A DNA stretch of 54,917 nt from a virus. Its lineage: Duplodnaviria > Caudoviricetes. A model generated the notes under the pieces. The model made no database searches. It was given only the letters and a program-made list of their open reading frames with translations, and was not told the origin of the DNA. Shown here piece after piece: positions 1 to 45,841 of the stretch (positions are counted from its first letter, which is position 1; every line of letters begins with the position of its first letter). The stretch is taken from positions 1 through 54,917 of the IMG/VR virus record IMGVR_UViG_3300020388_000022. One strand, written 5' to 3'. Position numbers and translations under genes: made by a program.

Positions 1-3000
1 GTACCTTCAGTAGTGAATACTCATCTGGAGATGTAATGATAGGTGCGGGTATGGCCTATAACGTAGGTAATACTGCTATTGTAAGTACTTTTGCTAATTT
101 CAGCAGTGTAAGAACAGGTCTTAAAATTAATAGAGGTTCAATTGCATTTGCTGGAACCTCAAGTGCAAGTGCAACTGCAGTTGGAAGTTCTTTAACTACA
201 GTAGATACATTTTCTCATAACACTGTAACTGGTGATACCACTACTACTGGTGGATTAACACTTAATGGTCATATACAACAAAACAACGCAAACGAAATAA
301 GAGGTAAAGATACGGGTGGAAATGTTCGTACTATTATGCGAATAAACAGTTCTAACCAATTAGAGTATGGTTGGTCAGCTAATGGCCCAGTTAAAATTAT
401 GGGTGGTGGTTCTTATACTACACGAATATTTATAGGAACAGATGGTAACACTGCTGTAACTGGTAATTTGTCATCAAGTGGCGATATGACTGTTGGAGGA
501 AACTTAATAGTCAATGGTACAACTACTACAATCAATACAGCTAATTTAAATGTAGAAGATAAGAATATAACATTAAATTATCATGCATCTAACGATACTT
601 CAAGTAGTGCAGATGGAGCTGGTATAACAATTCAAGATGCGGTTAATGGAAGTACAGATGCTTCTTTAACTTGGAATGCAGCCGGAGATAAGTTTATATT
701 CTCACATATATTGAGAATGTTTGGCAATATTGAGCTGCCAGATAATGTAAAACTAATTGCTGGTGACTCTAATGATTATTCAATTATGCATCATACTAAT
801 GGACACACTTATGTATCAGGAAGCTCAGTAAGACATGGCTCTAATGCATTTAGAGTAATGAATCTTGCTGATACTGAAACGCAAATAGAAGCTTTAGCAG
901 ATGGTGCAGTAACACTTTACCATAATGGTCAACCAAAAATAGCCACAGCAAGTGGTGGTGTTAATGTTACAGGAACTACAATAATAGATGCTAACGGTGG
1001 TACTGATAATTATTATTTAAAACTCCAAGAATCTGGTGCTGATAGATTTACTATATATGAAAATGGTAATAATGTTTGGTTCAATGGTGGGCCGGGTAGC
1101 ACATTCTTTAGACCAAGACAAAATGGAGGGAGTGGTAACTTTGCAGTTTTAGGAAGTAATGTTGGGGTTGGAGTTTCTTCACCATCAAATGCTCTTTCTG
1201 TAAGCGGTGTTATAACTGCGGGAGGTAATTTTACAGCGGCAGGTGTAGGAGGAACACCAGGAGATGCAAATACTGCAGAAGTTGGTCCGGGTTATATAAA
1301 CTTAGCAAGAGACGATACTGCAAGTGCAAAACAAATATTATTTGGAAAAAACGGTTCAGTCCATTCTTTCTTAGAGACTAGTTCCTCAGGTTTAAATATT
1401 GGCGGTGCTAATGTTGGTATCAGCACTGCACCTACACATAAACTTCATGTAGCAGGTGATATCAGAATTAATAATGGTGGTGCATTAAAACTCTATAATA
1501 CAGCTGGAAATGCTTGGGCAGAATTCAGACTTGATAATACAAGTGACCAAGTAACTCACCAAAGAACACTTAGACTGCAAACAGACTTAGCATATAATTT
1601 AGGTACTCCAAGTTATAGGTATGGTTATGTATATTCTAAGTACGCTCAAGCTTCCGAAGGTTTGACAAGTGATGGTATTTCAAGACAAACTGTTTGGAGA
1701 GCTGTAAATAATTCAGGAAGTAGTGGAACAAGATACGTAAAAATATGTAGAATTACAGCATCACAATCAGCAAGAGCACGTATTGATCTTACGGGAAGAG
1801 AAACAAGCTATGGTGACGGATCTCTACCTGCGTTTGGTCGTCTAGTCGGTCAATTAAATAACGACAATAACTATGACTTTACATATTATAATTACCATAC
1901 AGGAAGTTCACAAGTAGTTACTGAAATTGGTCAAGTTGATGTTGATTCTAATAGTACAGATATATATGTAAGAATAACTAGCTTTGCAGAAGTTGGTGCA
2001 GTAGGTGTAATTTCAGAAGGTACTATCTTACCTACAACAGGAAATACTGGAGCAGCACAGGGTACATCAAGTGCTCCTACGGGCTATACAGCAATTACCG
2101 CTCAGAAAATACTGCTGGAAAATACTGCTGGAAATGTCGGTATTGGAACAACCAGTCCTGGTGGTAAACTTGATGTACGTGGAGATTTACACGTAGGTTC
2201 TGGAGGTAATAAGGCAAGATTAAAATCTGATGGTACACACACCTATTTAGATGCTATACCTAGCAATAGTGATATAATATTTAGAAATGCTGGATCAGTC
2301 GAAAAAATGAGACTAGTCAATACTGGCGTGCTTCAATTAACATCAGCTATAAATGGGTATTTAAATGCTACTACTGTAGGCATGGAACTAGACATAAATA
2401 GAAACCCTGAAACTGGTGCTTTTAAAAATACCGGACTTAGTCACGCAAGAATAATAATGAGAGGTGATACTGCAGCAAACGGAGGCTCTAATATTAAATT
2501 TGTTACTTCTCCAGCTGTTAATACTGTTGGAACAACAAAAATGACTGTTGCAGGCGATGGGCACGTTGGTATCGGAACAACTGGTCCACAAACACTTCTT
2601 CATATTGAAGGAAGTACAAATAGCTATAACTCTGCTCCTCTTATATATTTCGGAAGCACAAGTACAGCAAATGCAGCAGTAAGAGACTGGGCTATTGGAC
2701 CAGCAGACTCAAACTATGGTAATTTTCATATATTCCAAGGGGCTTCTACAGGAGCAAGTGCAGTTGGTACTTCTCAGATTGCGCTTACAATAGATTCAAA
2801 TAAGCAAGTTGGTATCGGACCGGGTATGCAGTCTCCAGCAGCTGCTCTAGACGTTCAAGGTTCAAGCGCTTTGTTTATGACCAGAACTTCTAGTGGTCTA
2901 GCAACTTACATAGAAAATGATGGTGGATATGCCGCACTATACTTATATCAAATAGGAGGAAGCCCTAAAGTAGCAATTCATGGAAATGGAAGTTCTTATT

Positions 3001-4658
3001 TTAATGGCGGAAACGTTGGTATTGGAACAGCCAGTCCAGGTAAAAAACTAGAAGTAAATGTAGGAAGTGGCAATACTGATGGTATTAGAATTACTGGCAG
3101 CTCCGCAAATACTTCTCTTATAATTAACAACACTGGTAGTAATGGTGTTGCTTGGGATATATCCTCAACAGGTGCAGGACATGGATATGGAGAAGGAGCC
3201 TTACACTTTGGAGTAGGTTTTGGCCATCCAAAGATGAAAATAACTAGTGACGGCAAAGTTGGTATTGGCTTAAACCATCCCTCAGAAAAGTTAGTTGTTA
3301 ATGTTAATAGCGCAGGCATTAAAGCGGGTCTAATATTAAACAATCAACATGGATATGGGGTTGGCGCTGGCGTAGCTGCAACAGCATTACAGTTTGCTAG
3401 AGATAATGCACCAGATAATGGACAAACTGTTATTAGTGGACAAATTTATTCTGGTAATGAAAATGAACAAACAAGTAACCCTTGCATGATGGCATTTTCA
3501 ACTAAGTCAGGTACATCGCCATATACTCTAACAGAGCATATGCGAATAGCCTCAACTGGCAATGTTGGTATAGGAACTACTAATCCTCAGCAAAAATTAG
3601 ATGTTGCAGATAATACAGACGTTTCAGCAAGAATAGGTAGAGCTAACATTGGTCATTCAGGCCATAATGATTATGCAGGATTTTCACACCGAGATCAACT
3701 TGGATCTACTCAGTATGCATTATTACAAAGTTCTTCAGGACAAACTTTTTTAAATTCAACATCAGGTCAGGTGTTGAATTTCAGAATAGGTAACTCTCAG
3801 AAAGCAACAATAACTAGTAGTGGTCTTAATATGGCTTCAGGTACTGATATTCAGCATAACGGTACTGTAGTACTAAATGGCAGTAGATATATTGGAAATG
3901 TAGATAGATTATATTTAGGTAGTACAAATAATTTTAATGGTAATTTTTTATCCGGTGATGCAAATTGTGTAAAGGTAAATGATGGCTGTGATATTGAATT
4001 ATTTAATAGCTCTGCTACATCAAATGGTAGTGTGCATTTACCTAGGCAAGGTTACTTAACATTCTTTGGTGATGGAAATATAGCTCATTCTATTGGTGCT
4101 CAGAATAGTGATTCATTAAGAATTAACTCTTATGGCCAAGTAAATATTAATCTTGACTCTAATGGTAATGATGCAAGTGCAAACTTTACAATTGGAAGAC
4201 ATGCTGGTGCAAGTAATGCATTTGGTACAAGTGATGTATTATTTAGAGTATTTGAAAATGATGGAGATGTAGTTGCGAAGGGTGATGTTACAGCATTTGG
4301 TTCTTTCTCGGATAAAAGATTAAAAGAAAATATAAAAACAATTGAGAAACCTATTGAAAAGATAATGACATTATCAGGTGTTACATTTAATTATAAAGAT
4401 AGCGGTAAAAAATCAACAGGTCTTATTGCACAAGATTTAGAAGAAGTCTTGCCAGAAGCAGTATATGAAACAGAAAACATAGGTGCTCCACCTGCTGAAG
4501 ACCCAGCAAATGATAAAGGAGAAAATAAAGTTAAGGCTATTAGATATGGTAATACTGTAGGTTTATTAGTTGAAGCAATAAAAGAGCAACAAAGTATTAT
4601 AAATAGATTAGAGAAAAGAATTAAAACCTTGGAAGGAAAAAAGAATGGCAATAAATAA
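1..4658 (+). CDS. Long tail fibre/adhesin with C-terminal intramolecular chaperone (peptidase S74); 5'-truncated by the window
   Basis: Frame is open from position 3, upstream of the ATG at 36. G/S/T/N-rich, about 8 GNVGIGTTxP-type repeats, C-terminal SDKRLKENIK...IAQDLEEVLPEAV...LLVEAIKEQ signature. Confidence 0.88.
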   Translation, partial: TFSSEYSSGDVMIGAGMAYNVGNTAIVSTFANFSSVRTGLKINRGSIAFAGTSSASATAVGSSLTTVDTFSHNTVTGDTTTTGGLTLNGHIQQNNANEIRGKDTGGNVRTIMRINSSNQLEYGWSANGPVKIMGGGSYTTRIFIGTDGNTAVTGNLSSSGDMTVGGNLIVNGTTTTINTANLNVEDKNITLNYHASNDTSSSADGAGITIQDAVNGSTDASLTWNAAGDKFIFSHILRMFGNIELPDNVKLIAGDSNDYSIMHHTNGHTYVSGSSVRHGSNAFRVMNLADTETQIEALADGAVTLYHNGQPKIATASGGVNVTGTTIIDANGGTDNYYLKLQESGADRFTIYENGNNVWFNGGPGSTFFRPRQNGGSGNFAVLGSNVGVGVSSPSNALSVSGVITAGGNFTAAGVGGTPGDANTAEVGPGYINLARDDTASAKQILFGKNGSVHSFLETSSSGLNIGGANVGISTAPTHKLHVAGDIRINNGGALKLYNTAGNAWAEFRLDNTSDQVTHQRTLRLQTDLAYNLGTPSYRYGYVYSKYAQASEGLTSDGISRQTVWRAVNNSGSSGTRYVKICRITASQSARARIDLTGRETSYGDGSLPAFGRLVGQLNNDNNYDFTYYNYHTGSSQVVTEIGQVDVDSNSTDIYVRITSFAEVGAVGVISEGTILPTTGNTGAAQGTSSAPTGYTAITAQKILLENTAGNVGIGTTSPGGKLDVRGDLHVGSGGNKARLKSDGTHTYLDAIPSNSDIIFRNAGSVEKMRLVNTGVLQLTSAINGYLNATTVGMELDINRNPETGAFKNTGLSHARIIMRGDTAANGGSNIKFVTSPAVNTVGTTKMTVAGDGHVGIGTTGPQTLLHIEGSTNSYNSAPLIYFGSTSTANAAVRDWAIGPADSNYGNFHIFQGASTGASAVGTSQIALTIDSNKQVGIGPGMQSPAAALDVQGSSALFMTRTSSGLATYIENDGGYAALYLYQIGGSPKVAIHGNGSSYFNGGNVGIGTASPGKKLEVNVGSGNTDGIRITGSSANTSLIINNTGSNGVAWDISSTGAGHGYGEGALHFGVGFGHPKMKITSDGKVGIGLNHPSEKLVVNVNSAGIKAGLILNNQHGYGVGAGVAATALQFARDNAPDNGQTVISGQIYSGNENEQTSNPCMMAFSTKSGTSPYTLTEHMRIASTGNVGIGTTNPQQKLDVADNTDVSARIGRANIGHSGHNDYAGFSHRDQLGSTQYALLQSSSGQTFLNSTSGQVLNFRIGNSQKATITSSGLNMASGTDIQHNGTVVLNGSRYIGNVDRLYLGSTNNFNGNFLSGDANCVKVNDGCDIELFNSSATSNGSVHLPRQGYLTFFGDGNIAHSIGAQNSDSLRINSYGQVNINLDSNGNDASANFTIGRHAGASNAFGTSDVLFRVFENDGDVVAKGDVTAFGSFSDKRLKENIKTIEKPIEKIMTLSGVTFNYKDSGKKSTGLIAQDLEEVLPEAVYETENIGAPPAEDPANDKGENKVKAIRYGNTVGLLVEAIKEQQSIINRLEKRIKTLEGKKNGNK

Positions 4659-35809: not shown

Positions 35810-36106
35810 ATGAAGAACGTACAATTAATAAGATTAACATCTGGAGAAGAACTTCTAACAGATGTCGACCTAAATGGTATTGATACAGAGACAGTTATTT
35901 TAAAAGATGCTCTTTGTCTTATACCAGCAGGTGAAGGTAAGATAGGATTTATGCCTTTCATGCCATACACAAAAGCGAAAGATGGCTTAGAACTAGATAT
36001 GAAGCATATTATGTTTATGGTAGAACCAAACGATATGCTATTAGAACAACATAGGAATGCTACTTCAGAACTAGCAGTTCCAGCAGAAAAGAAGATTATA
36101 ACATGA
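35810..36106 (+). CDS. Conserved hypothetical protein (small beta-barrel)
   Basis: LIRLTSGEELL and PFMPY; resembles ORF 20857. Confidence 0.7.
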   Translation: MKNVQLIRLTSGEELLTDVDLNGIDTETVILKDALCLIPAGEGKIGFMPFMPYTKAKDGLELDMKHIMFMVEPNDMLLEQHRNATSELAVPAEKKIIT

Positions 36107-36513
36107 GTAAAGACTGGGTAAAAGATATTGAACTAATGCACGATAAGTATGGAGTTAAAACATGGATGGAAGATCATAAAAACGATTCAGACAGACTACG
36201 TAAGTATCTTGAGTTTAGAATCAACTTCATAAAAGAAGAATTTGATGAAACAGAAGCAGCTTTAATTAATATGGATGCTGAAGAAATCGTCGATGGTCTT
36301 ATTGACTTATGTGTTGTTGCAATAGGTACTCTTGATGCATTTGGAATTGATCCATATAAAGCATGGGACGAAGTACTCTATGCGAACATGAGAAAGAATG
36401 TAGGTGTTAAACCAGAAAGACCTAATCCAATGGGGTTGCCTGATTTAGTTAAACCAGACGATTGGGAAGCACCTTCACATAAAGGTAACTATGGTAAGCT
36501 TAACAATATTTGA
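36103..36513 (+). CDS. All-alpha NTP pyrophosphohydrolase (PRA-PH/MazG-like)
   Basis: FIKEEFDE, EEIVDGLIDL, VLYANM, KPDDWEAP. Confidence 0.8.
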   Translation: MSKDWVKDIELMHDKYGVKTWMEDHKNDSDRLRKYLEFRINFIKEEFDETEAALINMDAEEIVDGLIDLCVVAIGTLDAFGIDPYKAWDEVLYANMRKNVGVKPERPNPMGLPDLVKPDDWEAPSHKGNYGKLNNI

Positions 36514-37423: not shown

Positions 37424-37687
37424 ATGAAAATGTTAGCAGATAATGTATTGGTAACAGAGGTACCAACTGAAAGTAAAAGTACTGGTGGTATTATATTAAC
37501 CGAATCAATAGACAATGCAAGTAAACCAGGATTGGTTTTAGCTGTAGGTTCAGGTGCAAATGGTCAAATTCAAAGTGGACAAAGAGTCTTTCTTGAGTGG
37601 GGCGAAGCAATGCCAGTCAATGTAGAAGGCAAAGCCGCCGTCATAATTAAATCTGAATATATCAGAGCAATTATAGGAGAAGAATAA
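37424..37687 (+). CDS. groES: GroES-like co-chaperonin
   Basis: LADNVLV, mobile loop ESKSTGGIIL, GLVLAVGSG; late promoter at 37404-37411. Confidence 0.88.
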   Translation: MKMLADNVLVTEVPTESKSTGGIILTESIDNASKPGLVLAVGSGANGQIQSGQRVFLEWGEAMPVNVEGKAAVIIKSEYIRAIIGEE

Positions 37688-38163: not shown

Positions 38164-38496
38164 ATGAAAGAATCATTAAAAGTGTTACAAGAATGTGCAG
38201 AGCTTCAAGCTAAGAAATCACAAGACTATCAAAGTGACGAATCAACTGTTACTCAAGCCATGCATTATCGTAGAGGTGTAGATACCATACACGATATTAT
38301 TCTCGGTAAAGTTGTTCGTGCAACATCATTATTAGAATCAGGCAATGAACCTAACTTTGAAAGCATAGAAGATACTTATAAAGATATGATTAACTATTGT
38401 TCTTTTGCAGTTGCTTATGCCAGAGGTAAAATGGAAGGTCAAGACCCTAACAGAGATATGTTTAACAAGAAGGTGAAAGATGTATCGGATCAGTAA
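38164..38496 (+). CDS. Nucleotide-modification-associated domain protein (Nmad1/DUF1599-like)
   Basis: LQAKKSQDY...K..R...ESIEDTYKDMINY pattern; adjacent to gp42. Confidence 0.65.
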   Translation: MKESLKVLQECAELQAKKSQDYQSDESTVTQAMHYRRGVDTIHDIILGKVVRATSLLESGNEPNFESIEDTYKDMINYCSFAVAYARGKMEGQDPNRDMFNKKVKDVSDQ

Positions 38497-39157
38497 TACA
38501 GAAGATATCGCAAATGTTTTTAGAAATCACTTAACTGCTGAAAACTTTGTGCAAGATAAAACTGGTGTAAAAACCATTGAGATCATTGGTGCTAATTTTG
38601 TTGCTGATAAACCAGCAATCTTTGGTGAACCAAATGAAGAATACATTGAGCAAGAGTTGCGTTGGTATGATTCTAAATCTACTAACATTAATGATATATA
38701 CGAAGATAGAGAACCACCACAAGCATGGCAATATTCAGCAAACAAACATGGTGAAATCAATTCTAATTATGGCCATTTGATTTGGTCTAGTAAATACTAT
38801 AATCAATACAATAAAGTATTAAACGAGTTGCTCGAGAATCCAAATTCACGTAGAGCATGTATGGTTTATAATCGACCTAGTATATGGAAAGAATACAAAG
38901 AAAATGGCAAGAATGATTTTATTTGCACAAATGCTGTAACATATTATATTAGACATAATACATTACATGCAACTGTACAAATGAGAAGTAATGATGTGAT
39001 GTTTGGTTATAGAAACGATTATGCTTGGCAAAAACATGTGTTTGATATGCTAAGAGACGATTTGTATTATCAAGGAGTACCACTAGAACCTGGCCATATT
39101 CATTGGCAAGTTCAAAATCTACATGTTTATGAGAGGCACTTCGACCTAGTTAAATGA
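38480..39157 (+). CDS. gp42: dCMP hydroxymethylase (gp42, thymidylate-synthase fold)
   Basis: DKTGVKTIEIIGA, EINSNYG, DFICTN (catalytic Cys), MRSNDVMFGYRNDYAWQ (Asp at the dCMP-specificity position), LHVYERHF. Confidence 0.88.
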   Translation: MYRISNTEDIANVFRNHLTAENFVQDKTGVKTIEIIGANFVADKPAIFGEPNEEYIEQELRWYDSKSTNINDIYEDREPPQAWQYSANKHGEINSNYGHLIWSSKYYNQYNKVLNELLENPNSRRACMVYNRPSIWKEYKENGKNDFICTNAVTYYIRHNTLHATVQMRSNDVMFGYRNDYAWQKHVFDMLRDDLYYQGVPLEPGHIHWQVQNLHVYERHFDLVK

Positions 39158-39333
39158 AACAATTGTGGCACGATTACATGGGCAATTCAAAAGAATGGCA
39201 AGATTCATCTACAGGGTGGGTTAACACTATGACCAAATCAAAAGAAAACAAAGAAGAATACAAAAAGTATTTAGAAGTAACAAAAGATCCAATCCCTTAT
39301 AGAGATTGGTTAAGGGAGATATATGTGGGATAA
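39154..39333 (+). CDS. 59-aa hypothetical protein, not in ORF track
   Basis: MKQLWHDYMGNSKEWQDSSTGWV...; ATGA overlap with gp42. Confidence 0.55.
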   Translation: MKQLWHDYMGNSKEWQDSSTGWVNTMTKSKENKEEYKKYLEVTKDPIPYRDWLREIYVG

Positions 39334-39751
39334 AAGATATATTGGTTTAGCCAAACACATTGCTACCTGGAGTAAAGACCCAAGTACAAAGATTGGTGCA
39401 GTTGCAATTGGTGAAAAAGGCCAAGTACTTGCACAAGGATATAATGGATTCCCTAGAGGTATTACTGATTCTGACGATAGGCTAATGGATAGAGAAACAA
39501 AATACAAATATGTAGTTCATGCAGAAATGAATTGCATATATAATGCTACATATAATGGAGTATCACTTCAAGGTGCTACGATATATATTTATGGTTTACC
39601 CGTTTGTCATGAATGTGCAAAGGGATTAATCCAAGTCGGAATAAAAAGAGTAGTATATAAGTCCGATATGATTCCAGCAAAATGGGCAGAAAGTAATAAA
39701 CAAACAATAGAATTATTTAGTGAGGCAGACATTAGCTATGAGCGCATTTGA
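39323..39751 (+). CDS. cd: dCMP deaminase
   Basis: SKDPSTKIGA, GYNGFPRG, HAEMN, PVCHEC. Confidence 0.93.
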   Translation: MWDKRYIGLAKHIATWSKDPSTKIGAVAIGEKGQVLAQGYNGFPRGITDSDDRLMDRETKYKYVVHAEMNCIYNATYNGVSLQGATIYIYGLPVCHECAKGLIQVGIKRVVYKSDMIPAKWAESNKQTIELFSEADISYERI

Positions 39752-40028
39752 TCCAAAAGAAATACAAAACAGTAAAAGAATTTTTAAATCAGCAACACCA
39801 AAGTATGATATAAGTTGGTATATAAAATGGATAGCATCTATTTTTATTTTATGCGCACTATCAGTGAGAGGTGTTGATGGCTACCAGATGTATGATTTAA
39901 TATTATCTATCTTTGGTATTGCAGGCTGGCTAATAGTTTCAATCTTATGGAAAGATAGAGCTCTATTAGTATTAAATGGTGTTGGCCTTATCTTTTTATT
40001 AAGAAATCTATTTACTGTTTTAGCATGA
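39738..40028 (+). CDS. Small multi-pass membrane protein (DUF6552-like)
   Basis: Three hydrophobic segments; WYIKWIAS, WKDRALLVLN. Confidence 0.65.
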   Translation: MSAFDPKEIQNSKRIFKSATPKYDISWYIKWIASIFILCALSVRGVDGYQMYDLILSIFGIAGWLIVSILWKDRALLVLNGVGLIFLLRNLFTVLA

Positions 40029-40291
40029 CAAAAAGAGAAGAAGCTTTAGTCATAACCATGGAAGAATGTGGTGAGCTTATTCAAGCTTGCAGTAAAGTTA
40101 TCAGAACAAAAGAAGATACCAAATACATGAGAAATCTACAAGACGAAATTGGTGATGTGATGTGTATGATAGAAATTTTAAAAATGAGTGGCTTAGTAAC
40201 CGATAAACAAATAGAAGATCGCATGGAAGTGAAAAAGAAAAAATTAATGAAATGGAGTTTATTATATGAAAATAGTAATACCAACATATAA
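40025..40291 (+). CDS. Small MazG-like NTP pyrophosphohydrolase
   Basis: MEECGELIQACSK...LQDEIGDV. Confidence 0.78.
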   Translation: MTKREEALVITMEECGELIQACSKVIRTKEDTKYMRNLQDEIGDVMCMIEILKMSGLVTDKQIEDRMEVKKKKLMKWSLLYENSNTNI

Positions 40292-41081
40292 AAGACCCGA
40301 CGGTCAATTAGATATTTTAGAAAACGGGTGGATACCTGAAAGTTATTATCATAATGTTTATGTTTGTATCAGAAATACTATAGAAGAGTACGAGAGATAT
40401 AAACACCTAGAAGATAGAGTTACTTTAGTTCCATTAGATTTACCAGAAGATTCTGGCATACCAGAAAAAAGAGATGCAATATGTCGTCACTTTGCTGGTG
40501 AGAAAATATGGATGTGTGATGATGATATTAAAATTGTATCTACACATTTAAGAGACGACAAAGGTTATATTATCAAAGATAAAACATTAAGTCGAGCATC
40601 TTTTAATATGTTAATTTCAACAGCCAATGAATTACTAGATGAACATCCATTTGGTGTAGTAAATACTGGATTCTTTCCACACGATAAAAAGAAACATCCT
40701 ATTGCATTAAATCGTTGGGGTGCATTTAATTCTTTTATTAATTTAAGTAAACTAAATGCAGATGATCTAGGTTATACAAGAGTGAAATATTACGAAGATA
40801 TCGCTGCTTGGTTAAGTGCTATAGATATAGGGTATGACAATTTTTCTATATTTGGATGGTTGTTAATTATCGGAAAAGAAAAGAGTGGTGGTAATGTGGC
40901 AGCAAGAAACGAAGATACAATGGAAGAAGCATCTCAAAAGCTTCATGCATTATATCCAGATCATATTAAACTACAAAATAAAGCAGTAGATAAAAAGAAT
41001 AATAGAAGAGTGTATTTAAAAGTTATGCCAAAAGGCGTACCAAAATATTTAAAAGATTTAGAAGCATCTATTGACATCTAA
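40266..41081 (+). CDS. GT-A DNA glycosyltransferase (T2/T6 beta-glucosyl-HMC-alpha-glucosyltransferase-like)
   Basis: IVIPTYKR, GIPEKRDAI...AGEKIWMCDDD, YYED, SGGN. Confidence 0.78.
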   Translation: MKIVIPTYKRPDGQLDILENGWIPESYYHNVYVCIRNTIEEYERYKHLEDRVTLVPLDLPEDSGIPEKRDAICRHFAGEKIWMCDDDIKIVSTHLRDDKGYIIKDKTLSRASFNMLISTANELLDEHPFGVVNTGFFPHDKKKHPIALNRWGAFNSFINLSKLNADDLGYTRVKYYEDIAAWLSAIDIGYDNFSIFGWLLIIGKEKSGGNVAARNEDTMEEASQKLHALYPDHIKLQNKAVDKKNNRRVYLKVMPKGVPKYLKDLEASIDI

Positions 41082-41099
41082 CTAAAAACGTGTTATAAT
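41071..41099 (+). promoter_or_regulatory. Early/middle promoter for the alpha-glycosyltransferase operon
   Basis: TTGACA-17 nt-TATAAT, ending 9 nt before ATG. Confidence 0.75.
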
Positions 41100-41108
41100 A
41101 TATTAATT

Positions 41109-42479
41109 ATGGTTGATAAGAAAATCGCAATAGTATTCGGCAAAGGCCTTGATGGCTGTGGTGTCGAAAAGTTTGGTTATGAATGGCAAAGATATGATCC
41201 AGAAAATATCGATGTCTTTGCATTAAAAGAAAGAGCATTCAATCGTGGTGGTACACATATCACTGACTATACAGAATTTAAACCAGACGAAATGTCAACC
41301 ATTGCAGAAAGATTAAATAAAGATTATGATATTGTAATTATTAATTCTTATCCAAGTCCATTACATTCACAAAAGACTGTAACTAGTTTTTATCGTGATC
41401 TAATACTAAAAATAGATAAACCAATTCTAGTAAGTATGATGCATGAGATTATACAATCTAATTATGATCGTATACCATTACAGGTTGCGATCTCAAATGC
41501 TGCAGATGTAGTATTTAATTTTTCTACCCATACTAACTATGCAAAAGATATGGCAAGAATACTTACCAATAAAAAATTAGGTGAACGTATTGCTAGAATG
41601 AAATTACCATTAACACTAGATGATTTTCAGAAATGGAGAGTTACACACGATCAAAAGAAAAGAAGATGCATCTATGCAGGTCGTTGGTCATCTATGAAAC
41701 AACCTAATGTTATAATCGAACTATGGGAAAGAGATAAAGACTTTCATTATGCATTACATGGTATTGAAAAATCTATTGGTGCTAAGTTTGATGTTATTGA
41801 CCCTTGTGATTATTTTAGAAAATATACAGGTACATATAACTATGAATCAGAAAGATGCGAATGCTTTGGTGAGTTTGATTACAATCAAGGTATGACACTT
41901 ATATCTGAATCTATGTTTGGTTATAGTGGATTCCATCTTCCAAAGATGCCACATAATTATGGAGATAGATTTGAATATGCTCAGATGGAAATAATTGCAT
42001 GTGGTACAGTTCCTATATTTGATATGCACTATGCAAATCATAATAAAGCAACTGATGGTAGTCTATTTGCAGATCACCCTATTGCAATATGGAATGATCG
42101 TACTAATTTAGATATGACAATAGATTTAATACATACGGTGGCAGATGATTCAACTACTTATTCTCAATACAATAAAGATGGTTTAGAGTTTCTGCATCAA
42201 GAAGCAGAATCAAGTGTAGTTATACCTGGCATGATAGAACATATTTGCACTATGGGTAAACAAGAAGATAAATGGAATACACAAGACTTACTCAGAGAAG
42301 TCTACAAGACAGAAGAAGCATACGAAGAGTTTAATTATCTTTTAAATAATAAGATAGCAGCTCTTGGCGTAAAAGAAATAGACAATGGTGATCTAAGTTA
42401 TTTTGAAAAGAAAGCTAGATTAATACACAAGAACATAAGTGAATTGAATACACAATCATTGGAGGATTTCTTTGGATAG
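41109..42479 (+). CDS. DNA alpha-glycosyltransferase (T4 alpha-gt-like, GT-B)
   Basis: GKGLDGCGVEKF, IINSYP, YAGRWSSMK, GIEKS, FEYAQMEIIACGTVPIF; C-terminal SLEDFFG. Confidence 0.85.
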   Translation: MVDKKIAIVFGKGLDGCGVEKFGYEWQRYDPENIDVFALKERAFNRGGTHITDYTEFKPDEMSTIAERLNKDYDIVIINSYPSPLHSQKTVTSFYRDLILKIDKPILVSMMHEIIQSNYDRIPLQVAISNAADVVFNFSTHTNYAKDMARILTNKKLGERIARMKLPLTLDDFQKWRVTHDQKKRRCIYAGRWSSMKQPNVIIELWERDKDFHYALHGIEKSIGAKFDVIDPCDYFRKYTGTYNYESERCECFGEFDYNQGMTLISESMFGYSGFHLPKMPHNYGDRFEYAQMEIIACGTVPIFDMHYANHNKATDGSLFADHPIAIWNDRTNLDMTIDLIHTVADDSTTYSQYNKDGLEFLHQEAESSVVIPGMIEHICTMGKQEDKWNTQDLLREVYKTEEAYEEFNYLLNNKIAALGVKEIDNGDLSYFEKKARLIHKNISELNTQSLEDFFG

Positions 42480-42831
42480 TATAGTAATAGATATTGACGA
42501 TACAATTTGTTATACCAAGCATGCGTATAAAGATGCTAAAACAAAATATGGTGAAGCATTACCAAATTTAAAAGTTATTAAAGGTATACGTAAACTTAAA
42601 TCAAAAGGGTTTAAGATTATATTACATACAGCTAGAAGAATGTTAACCTTTGATGGTGACATAAATAAAATAATAGATGATGTCGGAGACATAACAACTG
42701 ATTGGTTAGAGAGGCATGAGGTGCCCTACGATGAATTGGTTTGGGGTAAGCCTTATAGTTCTACCTTTTATGTCGACGATAAAGCAATGAATTTAAATGA
42801 GTTTATAGAATGGACAGATCATACAATTTAA
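42472..42831 (+). CDS. HAD phosphatase (capsule-biosynthesis BcbF/EcbF-like)
   Basis: DIDDTIC, LHTAR, VPYDEL.WGKP, YVDDKA. Confidence 0.82.
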   Translation: MDSIVIDIDDTICYTKHAYKDAKTKYGEALPNLKVIKGIRKLKSKGFKIILHTARRMLTFDGDINKIIDDVGDITTDWLERHEVPYDELVWGKPYSSTFYVDDKAMNLNEFIEWTDHTI

Positions 42832-44306
42832 TAATACCAGCTGCTGGAGCAGCAACAAGATTAAGACCTCTATCATCTAACACATCCAAAGTGATGGTTC
42901 GTGTTAATGGTAAGCCTTGCCTTGATTACATCATAGAGGCCGTCAACGGTGAAGTTGACGAAGTAATCGTTGTGGATGGAAAGTTCAATGATATTCGCGA
43001 GTATTGTGCACTTAAACATCCAAAGGTAAGGTTTGCTAATCAGCCATCGTTTGATGGACCAAGAGATGCAATTAAAATTGGAATGGAAGCTTTAAAAGAC
43101 CCTTCAAAACCAGTTGTTGTTTGGTTGGGTGATGCAATCATTTTAGAAAAGGGTATGCCTTTAGGTCATGACTTTCTATTAACTAAAAGAGTAACAGATC
43201 AATCAGCATGGTGCATGTGGGATGGTAGAAATTATTATAATAAACCTAAACAACCAGTAGAAGATTGCAATGCTCTTGTTGGTTTATATTCTTTCAGTTA
43301 TGGTAAAGATGCACTTAATGCTTTTAAACATACAGATGGATATGATATATCAGATGCTTTAGAGCATTATACAATGGATTCAGACAATAGGTTTGCCGAA
43401 TATATTACAGATGAATGGTATGACATTGGAGACTTACCAACATATTATAAAACATGTGCAGCTCTACTTAATACAAAAGCTCGTGCATTTAATAACTTAC
43501 ACTTTAATTCTGATTTAGGAACAATAAGAAAACAACCAACCTATCACGATAAAGATTCAATCAGTATTTTAAAACATGAAAAAGAATGGTACGATGAACT
43601 TACACCAGAGCAATCTATGTTTACACCTAGAATATTACCACATCCAGTTGATTTGATTATGTCATACGAAAGTGGTACATTACTAAGTGATTTAATGTTA
43701 TATGATAATATACCAAATAGTCATTGGGATTATATCCTAGACAGAATCTTTAATATTAAATTAAAATATTTTAATGCTAGAGTTACTGATCCAAATTATA
43801 TTGAAAAATTTAGTTCGATATCAAAAAAAATGTGGGTAGATAAAACAAACAAAAGATTAATGGATCAATCTTTAATCTTTCCAACTACACATATTAATTT
43901 GCTAAAAAATTATGCAGAAGAAATATACAAACATACAACCCCTATATTTGGTATGCATGGTGATTTGCATTTCGGTAACATATTATATAATCAACAAACA
44001 GATCAATTTAAACTATTGGATCCAAGAGGAGACTATGGTGGAATGAGCGGTACAGCTGGCGATAACATATATGATTGGGCAAAGCTTGCTCATGATTGTG
44101 TTTATGGTTATAATGCAATTGTTGCAGATGTACCACAGAACGAATATGTGAAAGAAGCATTTATTCGTAAATTAGACGAGTACGATTTACCTAAAGATAC
44201 TATTCTTAAAGGTGGATTATTATTATTGGCCACATGTATACCATTACATTATGATGATGCGGCTAGACAAAAAAGAATGAAAAAGAGGATAATAAATGAA
44301 TTATAG
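42810..44306 (+). CDS. Sugar-phosphate nucleotidyltransferase fused to an APH/choline-kinase-like domain
   Basis: IIPAAGAATRLRPLS..TSKVMV, WLGD, WYDIG; C-terminal HGDLHFGNILY, LLDPRG, YDWAKL. Confidence 0.82.
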   Translation: MDRSYNLIIPAAGAATRLRPLSSNTSKVMVRVNGKPCLDYIIEAVNGEVDEVIVVDGKFNDIREYCALKHPKVRFANQPSFDGPRDAIKIGMEALKDPSKPVVVWLGDAIILEKGMPLGHDFLLTKRVTDQSAWCMWDGRNYYNKPKQPVEDCNALVGLYSFSYGKDALNAFKHTDGYDISDALEHYTMDSDNRFAEYITDEWYDIGDLPTYYKTCAALLNTKARAFNNLHFNSDLGTIRKQPTYHDKDSISILKHEKEWYDELTPEQSMFTPRILPHPVDLIMSYESGTLLSDLMLYDNIPNSHWDYILDRIFNIKLKYFNARVTDPNYIEKFSSISKKMWVDKTNKRLMDQSLIFPTTHINLLKNYAEEIYKHTTPIFGMHGDLHFGNILYNQQTDQFKLLDPRGDYGGMSGTAGDNIYDWAKLAHDCVYGYNAIVADVPQNEYVKEAFIRKLDEYDLPKDTILKGGLLLLATCIPLHYDDAARQKRMKKRIINEL

Positions 44307-45540
44307 TTCTATTATACCACTGATAGGTGGAGAGAGTGTTGCGGTAATGAATGTGTTAAACGGACAATTACCAGAAGAGGTTTTATCTTATACTGGTTTT
44401 GCAGATAACGATAGTCATTACATTAATTATTTAAGAGAAAAGAAAAATTGGAAAGGCGAATATACTTTCCTAGATGAAAACCCCAATCATAAACCGAAGA
44501 AGGTTGATGTAGTAAATACAGTTTGCCCTTGTGCAGGTCTTTCATCACTATCACAACATAGCGTTCGTAATGAAGGTCACAATGACTGGATGTTTGAATC
44601 GTCAAGATTTGTGTTAGGAAAAATACAACCTAAAGTCTTATGGGGTGAGAACGCTCCAAGACTTGCTATGGAACCCGGTAAAGAAGTGGTAGCTCAACTC
44701 AGAGAAATTGGAAAAGAATTTGGTTATACACTAAGTGTTTATAAAACAAAATCATTAGTTCAAGGTTACAGTCAAATAAGAGATCGTGCATTCTATTTCT
44801 TTTGGAAAGGCGATAAGGTACCATTATTAGATTACATATCAAGACCTCACCAAAAAATAGAGGACCTATTAACATCAGTCAAAAACGTTAAAGGCGATCC
44901 TATGAGTGAAGTACCTAATCAAAAGAAACCATCCGACGATCCAGTATATAAGTATTTCTTAAATAAAACTGGAATGACACATGCTGAATTCGTTGCAGCA
45001 TTACCTCAACCAAATATGAATCTATATGACTATATGGATTTTATTGGTAATGAAACTAAAGGTGGTTCTGGTAAGACTTATGCTGGATGGTACGAAGTAT
45101 TAGAACACGTAAGTAAAAACGAAGATGAACTCTCTGGTAGATGGGCAAAGAGTTTACAAAGAATGATCGATAAACAAAAGGCAGGTGGTAGTGTAATGCG
45201 TAAGAGTACACAATTTCCTAAAGACTTTATTGGAGCCTTTGTTGGTCATTATCCATCTATGCTTACACATCCCACAGAAGATAGATTCCTTAGTTATAGG
45301 GAAATGCTATCTATCATGTATTTACCTGAGGATTTTGAATTATTAAATCCAAAGAGATTTACCAACCATATATGTCAGAACGTGCCTGTGAAAACAGCCG
45401 AAGACATGATGGAACAGGTCGTTAAATTCTGTGAGAATAAACTAGATTTAATTGATACTGATTATATTCTACAAGACAACAAAAGAAAAGTCCATGAATA
45501 TGCACAAAACAGTTTACAATTAGACCAGTTTATGATATAA
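44296..45540 (+). CDS. Divergent C5-cytosine DNA methyltransferase-fold protein
   Basis: Motif IV CPCAGLS, VI GENAP, VIII QIRDR, IX RFLSYRE...LPEDF, X CQNVP; motif I reads IPLIGG. Confidence 0.78.
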   Translation: MNYSSIIPLIGGESVAVMNVLNGQLPEEVLSYTGFADNDSHYINYLREKKNWKGEYTFLDENPNHKPKKVDVVNTVCPCAGLSSLSQHSVRNEGHNDWMFESSRFVLGKIQPKVLWGENAPRLAMEPGKEVVAQLREIGKEFGYTLSVYKTKSLVQGYSQIRDRAFYFFWKGDKVPLLDYISRPHQKIEDLLTSVKNVKGDPMSEVPNQKKPSDDPVYKYFLNKTGMTHAEFVAALPQPNMNLYDYMDFIGNETKGGSGKTYAGWYEVLEHVSKNEDELSGRWAKSLQRMIDKQKAGGSVMRKSTQFPKDFIGAFVGHYPSMLTHPTEDRFLSYREMLSIMYLPEDFELLNPKRFTNHICQNVPVKTAEDMMEQVVKFCENKLDLIDTDYILQDNKRKVHEYAQNSLQLDQFMI

Positions 45541-45577: not shown

Positions 45578-45841
45578 ATGCCAAGTATTGATTTACGACC
45601 AAGCAAGAGACATCCAAAAGACAAGCGTCCTTCAAGACCTATGCCTTTTGATGTAGCTTTAAGAAAATTTAAGAAAGCCTGTGAGAAAGCAGGTATCGTG
45701 CAAGAGGTTCGTAGAAAAGAATTCTATGAAAAACCAACTGCAAAAAGAAAAAGAAAAAAGGCCGAGGCAAGATCAAGACATCTTAAGCAATTAAGAATGG
45801 ATCGAGCAATGGGCTTTCCAGAAAGAAGGAGGACTAGATAA
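45578..45841 (+). CDS. rpsU: Phage-encoded ribosomal protein bS21
   Basis: [40 protein letters not shown]. Confidence 0.95.

Follow-up and report, generated by a model that had tools for sequence, protein, structure and literature searches.

What use would a phage that can make 5-hydroxymethylcytosine (hmC) have for sugar-activation genes of its own? T-even phages carry none and glucosylate their DNA with host UDP-glucose. By comparison, at positions 38164-45540 of the virus record IMGVR_UViG_3300020388_000022 in IMG/VR (54,917 bases with an estimated completeness of about 30 %; the whole stretch is hereafter called the window), a kinase/phosphatase/nucleotidyltransferase set is coupled to a homologue of the T4 glucosyltransferase alpha-gt. 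The best explanation, which we consider probable, is that a small HAD phosphatase and a nucleotidylyltransferase-kinase fusion would make a dedicated nucleoside diphosphate (NDP) sugar for the glycosylation of hmC, thereby protecting the phage DNA. The hmC in the DNA of this phage would then probably carry a sugar not yet described.

For a sugar donor that a phage makes for its DNA there is precedent, with a proposal for RB69 in 2018 and biochemistry in 2025-26. The RB69 module was first put forward in PMC6024577, and in RB69-type phages the proteins AfhE and AfhF are reported to make UDP-arabinofuranose (PMC13326640). By homology to these two proteins, the kinase half of the window fusion would take a host sugar phosphate with a terminal phosphate and phosphorylate its anomeric hydroxyl, the small HAD enzyme would remove this terminal phosphate, and the nucleotidyltransferase half would turn the sugar-1-phosphate into an NDP-sugar. 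One or both of the transferases encoded upstream would attach the sugar to hmC in DNA, and one of them, of the TAGT type, might add a second sugar. Glycosylation would be expected to shield the DNA from restriction and CRISPR nucleases, as other glycosylated cytosines do. An analogy is offered by the ADP-heptose route with its HldE kinase, GmhB phosphatase and HldE adenylyltransferase: there too an anomeric kinase acts, a small HAD enzyme removes the terminal phosphate and nucleotidyl transfer follows, but the kinase fold and the sugar are different.

The genes on which this explanation depends are the following:

38480-39157, plus strand: T4 gp42-type dCMP hydroxymethylase of the thymidylate-synthase fold (1b49, E 7.1e-70)
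40266-41081, plus strand: TAGT-type GT-A glycosyltransferase (PF20691, 32.7 bits, cut-off 27.5; phrog_842, E 6e-21)
41109-42479, plus strand: GT-B glycosyltransferase, T4 alpha-gt homologue (PF11440; phrog_2888, 8e-67; 1y6f, E 1.7e-18)
42472-42831, plus strand: HAD phosphatase of the AfhF / EcbF-BcbF kind, with a TTG start (TIGR01689, E 1.6e-25; phrog_1238, 2e-21)
42810-44306, plus strand: AfhE-like nucleotidylyltransferase-kinase fusion of 498 amino acids (PF00483; alignment with the phage PM2 protein; folds)

The phosphatase and the fusion

The fusion consists of a sugar-1-phosphate nucleotidylyltransferase (about residues 1-225) and a kinase of the APH/MTR-kinase fold (about residues 227-498). 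When the whole protein is modelled with AlphaFold (pLDDT 88.1), its N-terminal half resembles RmlA, GalU and LicC. Since a fold search with the full-length protein gave nucleotidyltransferase matches only, the C-terminal half was folded separately. The resulting model (pLDDT 92.5, pTM 0.90) has an APH/choline-kinase fold, the top match being 5-methylthioribose kinase (E 4.5e-6), which phosphorylates C1 of a pentofuranose substituted at position 5; the next matches are APH(2''), macrolide phosphotransferases and glucosamine kinase.

A link to the Afh proteins is provided by the 553-amino-acid fusion of Proteus phage PM2. A fusion-family profile built from 25 sequences aligns with it over 366 columns covering both domains (hhalign, 98.6 %, E 1.2e-15), and the C-terminal half of the PM2 protein is 40 % identical to RB69 gp52. 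BLASTP against the split RB69 proteins recovers the GxGTR region and the HGD..N..DPRG loop; the motifs HGDxHxxN and DPRG are invariant across the 25 fusion sequences. The window fusion is a remote full-length homologue of AfhE, predicted to unite a sugar-5-phosphate 1-kinase with an NDP-sugar pyrophosphorylase. For phage HY126, AfhE is reported to act both as a kinase of arabinose-5-phosphate and as a UDP-arabinose pyrophosphorylase, with AfhF removing the 5-phosphate (PMC13326640). The family is not rare: relatives of the fusion occur in 17 deposited phage records, and among 8,000 environmental candidates scored, 253 proteins belong to it at E <=1e-5.

The HAD protein contains a DIDDT motif and is 28 % identical to RB69 gp51 over 111 amino acids (E 2e-6). 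The PHROGs family that it matches, phrog_1238, is named "phosphoheptose isomerase", the label that RB69p051 also bears in the RB69 record. The initial annotation had seen in this part of the cluster a resemblance to the capsule-locus proteins BcbE and BcbF. As regards BcbF this is right in so far as the HAD protein matches TIGR01689 (EcbF-BcbF), but its 89.5 bits lie below the curated cut-off of 162; RB69 gp51 scores 49.5, and HAD proteins from Citrobacter and Phaeobacter score 166.5 and 166.7. The window protein, which is 35 % identical to the Citrobacter HAD that clears the cut-off, is a relative of the TIGR01689 family and not a member. It is a remote AfhF homologue and is predicted to strip the terminal phosphate off a sugar bisphosphate. 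The earlier proposal that the two genes make a dedicated NDP-sugar finds support in this homology, in the PM2 alignment and in the AfhE/AfhF precedent.

The complete Afh set of RB69-, HY126- and DLP3-type phages is reported to comprise an arabinose-5-phosphate isomerase, AfhE, AfhF, a 5-hydroxy-dCMP synthase and GT-B arabinosyltransferases (PMC13326640). The window shares with it a two-domain fusion and a small HAD protein, both homologous, the slot that separates the DNA polymerase gene from uvsX, an adjacent thymidylate synthase (TS) homologue and the principle that the phage makes its own NDP-sugar for glycosylating cytosine. It is nevertheless distinct in its true hmC synthase, in the lack of any isomerase found in the window (of the SIS type), in its transferases, which are of the alpha-gt and TAGT types and not of the RB69 gp3 or gp46:47 types, and in the attached gene for a protein with a C5-cytosine methyltransferase (C5-MTase) fold. 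In Shewanella phage Thanatos, a homologue is described together with a UDP-xylose pyrophosphorylase (PMC12838424).

The predicted modified base and the glycosyltransferases

The hydroxyl handle would be supplied by the 225-amino-acid TS homologue, which phmmer aligns with the T4 dCMP hydroxymethylase 1b49 over residues 18-224 (238 bits). The catalytic cysteine lies in FICTN, aligned with FMCTN of the T4 enzyme, and the motif MRSNDV.FG.RNDYAWQK is nearly identical in the two proteins. Two positions are diagnostic. Where E. coli ThyA has Asn177, the window protein has the Asp of cytosine specificity, in RNDYAW as in T4; in the T4 D179N mutant chain 6l18 the same stretch reads RNNYAW. At the position of ThyA Asp169 the window protein keeps Asp (MRSND), whereas RB69 and PM2 have MRSQN.

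The second position matters for the nature of the base. RB69-type phages are reported to contain arabosylated 5-hydroxycytosine, not hmC, their TS homologues being 5-hydroxy-dCMP synthases marked by Asn at the ThyA Asp169 position (PMC13326640), and the lack of a methylene bridge in RB69-type DNA has been confirmed (PMC13390438). While Afh phages carry this flavin-dependent hydroxylase, the window carries a hydroxymethylase with Asp at ThyA-169, and the flavin-type chains 9iqu/9iqc, with their MRSQN, match it only at 8e-9. We surveyed 31 related viral loci, with a fusion identity of 48-85 %. Asp stands at ThyA-169 in all 21 of those that hold gp42, and also in the cultured Pseudoalteromonas phage vB_Psh_XG4 (XG4). 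An assignment of the TS homologue as a 5-hydroxy-dCMP synthase was rejected on the strength of the retained Asp and the T4-like E-value. Because Asp is kept at ThyA-169 and the match to the T4 enzyme is close, the protein is a genuine gp42-type enzyme, and the window phage should make true 5-hydroxymethyl-dCMP from dCMP.

Two glycosyltransferases are encoded between the base-forming genes and the donor pair. The GT-A enzyme has a DxD motif (CDDDI) and is present in 11 of the 31 related loci, counting a 23 % match in one of them (L022). The alpha-gt homologue aligns with T4 alpha-gt in two stretches, scores 37.1 bits against PF11440 (cut-off 25), has gp306 of Bacillus phage G as its best deposited relative (30 %) and occurs in 15/31 loci. 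Ten other loci, XG4 and a further contig described below (L041) have a protein of 414-430 amino acids with weak GT-B signals, a family that we call GT4xx. The transferases are exchangeable while the HAD-fusion pair stays.

How far does the locus resemble the T-even system (gp42, alpha-gt and beta-gt in T4, a second glycosyltransferase in T2/T6)? It has a gp42 orthologue and an alpha-gt homologue, its GT-A enzyme falls into a PHROGs family named after the second-sugar enzyme of T2/T6, and, as in T4, a dCMP deaminase and nucleoside triphosphate (NTP) pyrophosphohydrolases lie beside gp42. These likenesses bring up a simpler reading, in which the pair merely boosts an ordinary donor, from glucose-6-phosphate via glucose-1,6-bisphosphate and glucose-1-phosphate to UDP-glucose, and the DNA bears plain mono- or diglucosyl-hmC as in T2, T4 and T6. 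The transferases are indeed homologous to T4 alpha-gt and to the second enzyme of T2/T6, neither the window nor five related records yielded an isomerase or epimerase that could form an unusual sugar, and the N-terminal half of the fusion resembles glucose-1-phosphate nucleotidylyltransferases. However, the sole biochemically anchored relatives make UDP-arabinofuranose (PMC13326640), the kinase fold is closest to a pentofuranose C1-kinase, and a strictly kept bypass of three activities is hard to explain in hosts that already make UDP-glucose. In addition, two of the three glucose-contacting histidines of T4 alpha-gt, as named in PMC6024577, appear to be replaced in the window protein: T4 QHDH corresponds to MHE-I and FSHSD to FNFST, in a low-confidence part of the alignment. 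That only one His aligns with His may be taken as a weak hint against glucose. On balance we regard a plain glucose modification as improbable.

The preferred reading, a dedicated donor for hmC, also has to be seen beside the phage clusters that combine a C5-methyltransferase (C5-MT), a TET dioxygenase (5mYOX) and glycosyltransferases. The window resembles them in its TAGT-type GT-A enzyme and its C5-MTase-fold gene, and two relatives, L022 and Stenotrophomonas phage DLP_6, even pair the HAD-fusion genes with a TET/JBP protein. The window differs in that no TET was found and its hmC is predicted to be made before replication by gp42. The papers on such clusters describe use of the host sugar-nucleotide pool, with epimerases in some clusters (Burke et al. 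2021, PMC8256090; Pyle et al., preprint, 10.1101/2023.12.21.572611). Pyle et al. surveyed about 25,000 contigs with glycosyltransferases; the genes they list next to glycosyltransferases near ThyS or 5mYOX include an "APH phosphotransferase", methyltransferases and dCMP deaminase (10.1101/2023.12.21.572611). In the passages searched, neither paper analyses a kinase/phosphatase/nucleotidyltransferase module for donor synthesis, and "kinase", "phosphatase" and "nucleotidyltransferase" each have 0 occurrences in the preprint. Within our coverage of the literature, outside which lay subscription texts and supplements, we found no paper that describes the HAD-fusion pair with a gp42-type hydroxymethylase.

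The locus and its relatives

The segment 38164-45540 contains 11 co-oriented open reading frames (ORFs) and a 59-amino-acid ORF, all on the plus strand and mostly overlapping by a few bases. According to the ORF coordinates, the overlap is 8 nt between alpha-gt and HAD, 22 nt between HAD and fusion, and 11 nt between fusion and C5-MTase. The nine genes that the initial annotation had placed in one co-oriented cluster are all real ORFs on this strand, each with a family match. Its limits were drawn too narrowly: the genes do lie at 38164-45540, but the module starts further upstream with a second MazG/PRA-PH gene. The remaining members are:

36103-36513, plus strand: PRA-PH/MazG-type nucleotide pyrophosphohydrolase (PF01503, E 9e-10; phrog_671, E 9e-21)
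38164-38496, plus strand: Nmad1/DUF1599, nucleotide-modification-associated domain 1 (PF07659, 33.7 bits, cut-off 25; phrog_1485)
39154-39333, plus strand: 59-amino-acid ORF without family assignment
39323-39751, plus strand: dCMP deaminase (PF00383, E 6.5e-19; phrog_174, E 5e-44)
39720-40028, plus strand: DUF6552 small hydrophobic protein (PF20189, E 1.4e-18; hydrophobic stretches in the translation)
40025-40291, plus strand: small MazG-like NTP pyrophosphohydrolase (phrog_4856, E 6e-19)
44296-45540, plus strand: C5-MTase-fold protein (PF00145, E 3.7e-15, above the cut-off)

The upstream pyrophosphohydrolase, a candidate dCTPase, is kept 5' of the cluster in 16/31 related loci, and the Nmad1 gene is syntenic among the relatives. 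The small MazG-like protein reaches 21.4 bits against Pfam MazG, just below the cut-off of 22. For the 59-amino-acid ORF there was no match in Pfam or PHROGs, nor by tblastn in any related locus.

The whole gene set occupies the slot that lies between the gene for DNA polymerase and that for UvsX. On its 5' side lie the genes for DNA polymerase, the PRA-PH/MazG pyrophosphohydrolase, a primase-like protein, GroES and an SNase-type endonuclease; the GroES-like co-chaperonin gene (37424-37687) is just 5' of the cluster. Ribosomal protein S21, UvsX and a DnaB-like helicase are encoded on the 3' side. The S21 gene (45578-45841; PF01165, E 1e-18), between the C5-MTase-like gene and uvsX, is kept in many related loci. 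At the other end of the window, ORF 3-4658 codes for more than 1,540 amino acids and leaves the window at its 5' end. A near-identity DNA search of deposited phages with the cluster gave no match. The best deposited relative of the UvsX protein is that of Phage C48C1 (73 %), which is classed in Kyanoviridae. The polymerase-UvsX slot of C48C1 (L035, 10141-12041) contains a nucleotide-sugar epimerase, a UDP-glucose dehydrogenase and a DNA methyltransferase but no gp42; the slot therefore holds other sugar-nucleotide genes in a related phage. What this plastic DNA polymerase-UvsX slot holds in the window is the module with which a marine T4-like (Kyanoviridae-like) myovirus would hypermodify its DNA.

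Since the cluster recurs in 31 related viral loci, its linkage is far beyond chance. The HAD gene is found in 27 of these loci; three are cut at the locus end and one, L019, lacks it. In L019, the 577 nt 5' of the fusion (1-577) are without a HAD gene, which its nearest kin have at this place. The dCMP deaminase is present in 22/31 loci and gp42 in 21/31. Of the ten loci that lack gp42, nine are truncated on the upstream side. In the tenth, L022, there is plenty of upstream sequence but gp42 is missing; this locus contains a TAGT-like transferase, the fusion, the HAD gene and then a TET/JBP dioxygenase (PF12851, E 1.3e-22). PF12851 gave 0 matches in the window and three related records, only the record of L022 being positive.

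Cultured phages extend the picture. DLP_6 has the order TAGT-HAD-fusion-TET as in L022; its HAD protein, 48 % identical to that of the window, has no annotation in the record and is encoded between AAY80_028 and AAY80_029. In the same locus (L038, KU682439.2, 7733-12023), AAY80_029 is the nucleotidyltransferase-kinase fusion, named "ModA" in a 2017 paper, and AAY80_030, which bears the label "SNF2 DNA repair protein", proves to be a homologue of TET/JBP with 54 % identity to the Tet_JBP protein of L022. The DLP6 paper contains no usable statement on DNA modification. XG4 combines an Asp-type TS homologue with HAD, fusion, GT4xx and C5-MTase-like genes. In Enterococcus phage 9183, a siphovirus of a Gram-positive host (L039, 5890-10842), dTMP kinase, TS homologue, dUTPase, HAD, fusion and a 406-amino-acid protein are encoded in a row. 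The TS homologue is Asp-type and cytosine-type, and the 406-amino-acid protein is 27 % identical to the GT4xx protein of XG4, which suggests that phage 9183 may carry an uncharacterised glycosylated pyrimidine.

In a quick maximum-likelihood tree the marine fusions, that of L022 included, group in a single clade (SH-aLRT 100), to which XG4 is sister (95), and L022 nests within the gp42-linked clade (SH-aLRT 100). Bacterial homologues make up a separate clade (SH-aLRT 100). The tree does not resolve its deep nodes, and long branches lead to PM2, DLP_6 and 9183. A scan of genome contigs for bacterial relatives gave one locus, L041, on a 28-kb contig of a Flavobacteriaceae metagenome-assembled genome (MAG; PBVB01000110.1), with the complete phage module, comprising genes for PRA-PH, Nmad1, gp42, deaminase, GT4xx, HAD, fusion, a C5-MTase-like protein and UvsX. 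It was rejected as a bacterial relative, because the contig is phage DNA that ended up in a bacterial MAG; for the host group this gives a weak hint at most.

Could HAD and fusion glycosylate something else, for instance virion proteins or the host surface, their position next to DNA-modification genes being inherited synteny? In bacteria, homologues of the two occur in capsule and O-antigen loci that also encode GT2 enzymes and ABC exporters, and the close relatives all belong to one phage lineage, so that the linkage could simply be inherited. Yet the pair stands beside TS homologues or TET in the unrelated phages 9183, DLP_6 and XG4, it serves DNA arabinosylation in RB69-type phages (PMC13326640), and in the window it appears to be translationally coupled to alpha-gt. 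The gene-neighbourhood survey asked for by the initial annotation had the same outcome: the companions of the pair in phages are gp42 or TET and DNA glycosyltransferases, not virion genes. We consider a target other than DNA highly unlikely.

Less easily accounted for is the C5-MTase-fold gene, which adjoins the fusion in 27/31 loci and in XG4; two loci are cut, and L022 and L033 are without it. In a search that had no positive control, the protein was not found in DLP_6, the record of L022, 9183, PM2 or RB69. The motifs PC, ENA, QxRxR and QNVP are kept in 19/19 homologues, with VC in motif IV of XG4; they correspond to motifs IV (PC), VI (ENV), VIII (QxRxR) and X (GNxVP-like). The AdoMet-binding motif I is atypical, PL(I/V)GG without the first Gly of FxGxG. 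A phage with hmC in place of C should present no C5 for methylation by the product of this strictly linked gene. The gene lends some colour to the idea that the base or nucleotide is the substrate of kinase and nucleotidyltransferase, which might for instance turn hmC into a leaving group for a non-sugar hypermodification in which the C5-MTase-fold enzyme, having no obvious substrate in hmC-DNA, would take part. Kinase-activated 5-hydroxymethylpyrimidines are established in thymine hypermodification, but that route uses P-loop kinases and not kinases of the APH fold (PMC8256090). Moreover, homologues of the fusion activate sugars (PMC13326640), and two glycosyltransferases are encoded directly upstream of the pair. 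There is in our view very little chance that the pair acts on the base.

The sugar and the scope of the cassette

If the pair makes a dedicated donor, which sugar would it activate? The fusion profile aligns over 370 columns with a 514-amino-acid Citrobacter protein, the partner of a true BcbF-family HAD (hhalign, 99.6 %, E 3e-24). From hhalign E-values and TIGR01689 scores, not from a tree, we have the impression that the Afh type may be no closer to the window proteins than such bacterial relatives are. E. coli homologues of the Citrobacter genes lie in a kps region with a gene of the CDP-glycerol glycerophosphotransferase family and in an O-antigen-like region, neither being a chondroitin locus; others are in a Phaeobacter locus of different composition. 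Because its homologues occur in loci of such varied composition, the fusion family does not fix the sugar. Compared with bacterial cassettes of a BcbF-type HAD and a "capsular biosynthesis protein"/WeoK, the window has homologous HAD and fusion proteins, but its HAD stays below the cut-off, and the bacterial fusions form a clade of their own and serve surface polysaccharides.

In Pasteurella multocida type B, the fructose side chain is reported to be missing from bcbE and bcbG mutants, with BcbF as a predicted partner of the two proteins (PMC13552107); in the parts of that paper covered, there is no domain description of BcbE. None of 120 listed homologues of the Citrobacter fusion protein is named BcbE. 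Another lead, fructosylation in E. coli K4 (kfoE), was dropped; the review gives no fold and the loci found are not those of chondroitin. Fructofuranose-6-phosphate and arabinofuranose-5-phosphate have a common D-arabino configuration, and fructose-6-phosphate is present in all hosts, Gram-positive ones included. The likeliest sugar is therefore a furanose with the D-arabino configuration; it could be arabinofuranose from host arabinose-5-phosphate or fructofuranose from fructose-6-phosphate.

Several observations speak against a dedicated sugar donor for hmC and have to be set beside this argument. Pairwise identity to the characterised Afh proteins is only 22-28 %, a level at which sugar specificity cannot be transferred from sequence. 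Pfam finds no significant kinase domain in the C-terminal half of the fusion when it is searched alone (ABC1 at E 0.0057 only). Characterised enzymes of the alpha-gt and TAGT types take UDP-Glc or UDP-GlcNAc from the host (PMC8256090), and bacterial homologues of the pair are located in capsule and O-antigen loci. Furthermore, the SIS isomerase (PF01380) gave 0 matches in the window, 0 in five related records (one of 183 kb and 91 % complete) and none in XG4, DLP_6 and 9183. RB69 served as a positive control (5e-12); since PM2, a phage of the 5-hydroxycytosine type, also lacks one, this absence is weakly informative. Finally, the record is only about 30 % complete. For this last reason, and as the sugar-phosphate precursor must come from the host, the pathway cannot be called self-contained, as had been done at first.

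A bolder version would have the widespread marine T4-like lineage and XG4 make a never-described furanosyl-hmC, arabino- or fructofuranosyl, from a donor that derives from an ordinary host sugar phosphate and needs no phage isomerase, with one cassette serving both the pre-replicative gp42 route and the post-replicative TET route and with the C5-MTase as a working part. This we regard as possible but rather unlikely as a whole. Arabinofuranosyl-hmC is the very structure that had formerly been misassigned to RB69.

Whether a given restriction, type IV or CRISPR system is able to cut the genome of a phage is decided by glycosylated cytosines. In the literature covered, pairs of the AfhE/AfhF type are tied to 5-hydroxycytosine in Straboviridae; here such a pair stands with what should be a genuine hmC synthase. 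The cultured phages XG4, DLP_6 and 9183 allow direct chemistry on carriers of the module. Because the pair joins gp42 in the window, TET in sister loci and, in a phage that infects a Gram-positive host, a TS homologue, the data suggest that the HAD-fusion pair is a portable "sugar-donor cassette", which would diversify DNA glycans whatever the origin of the hydroxyl handle.

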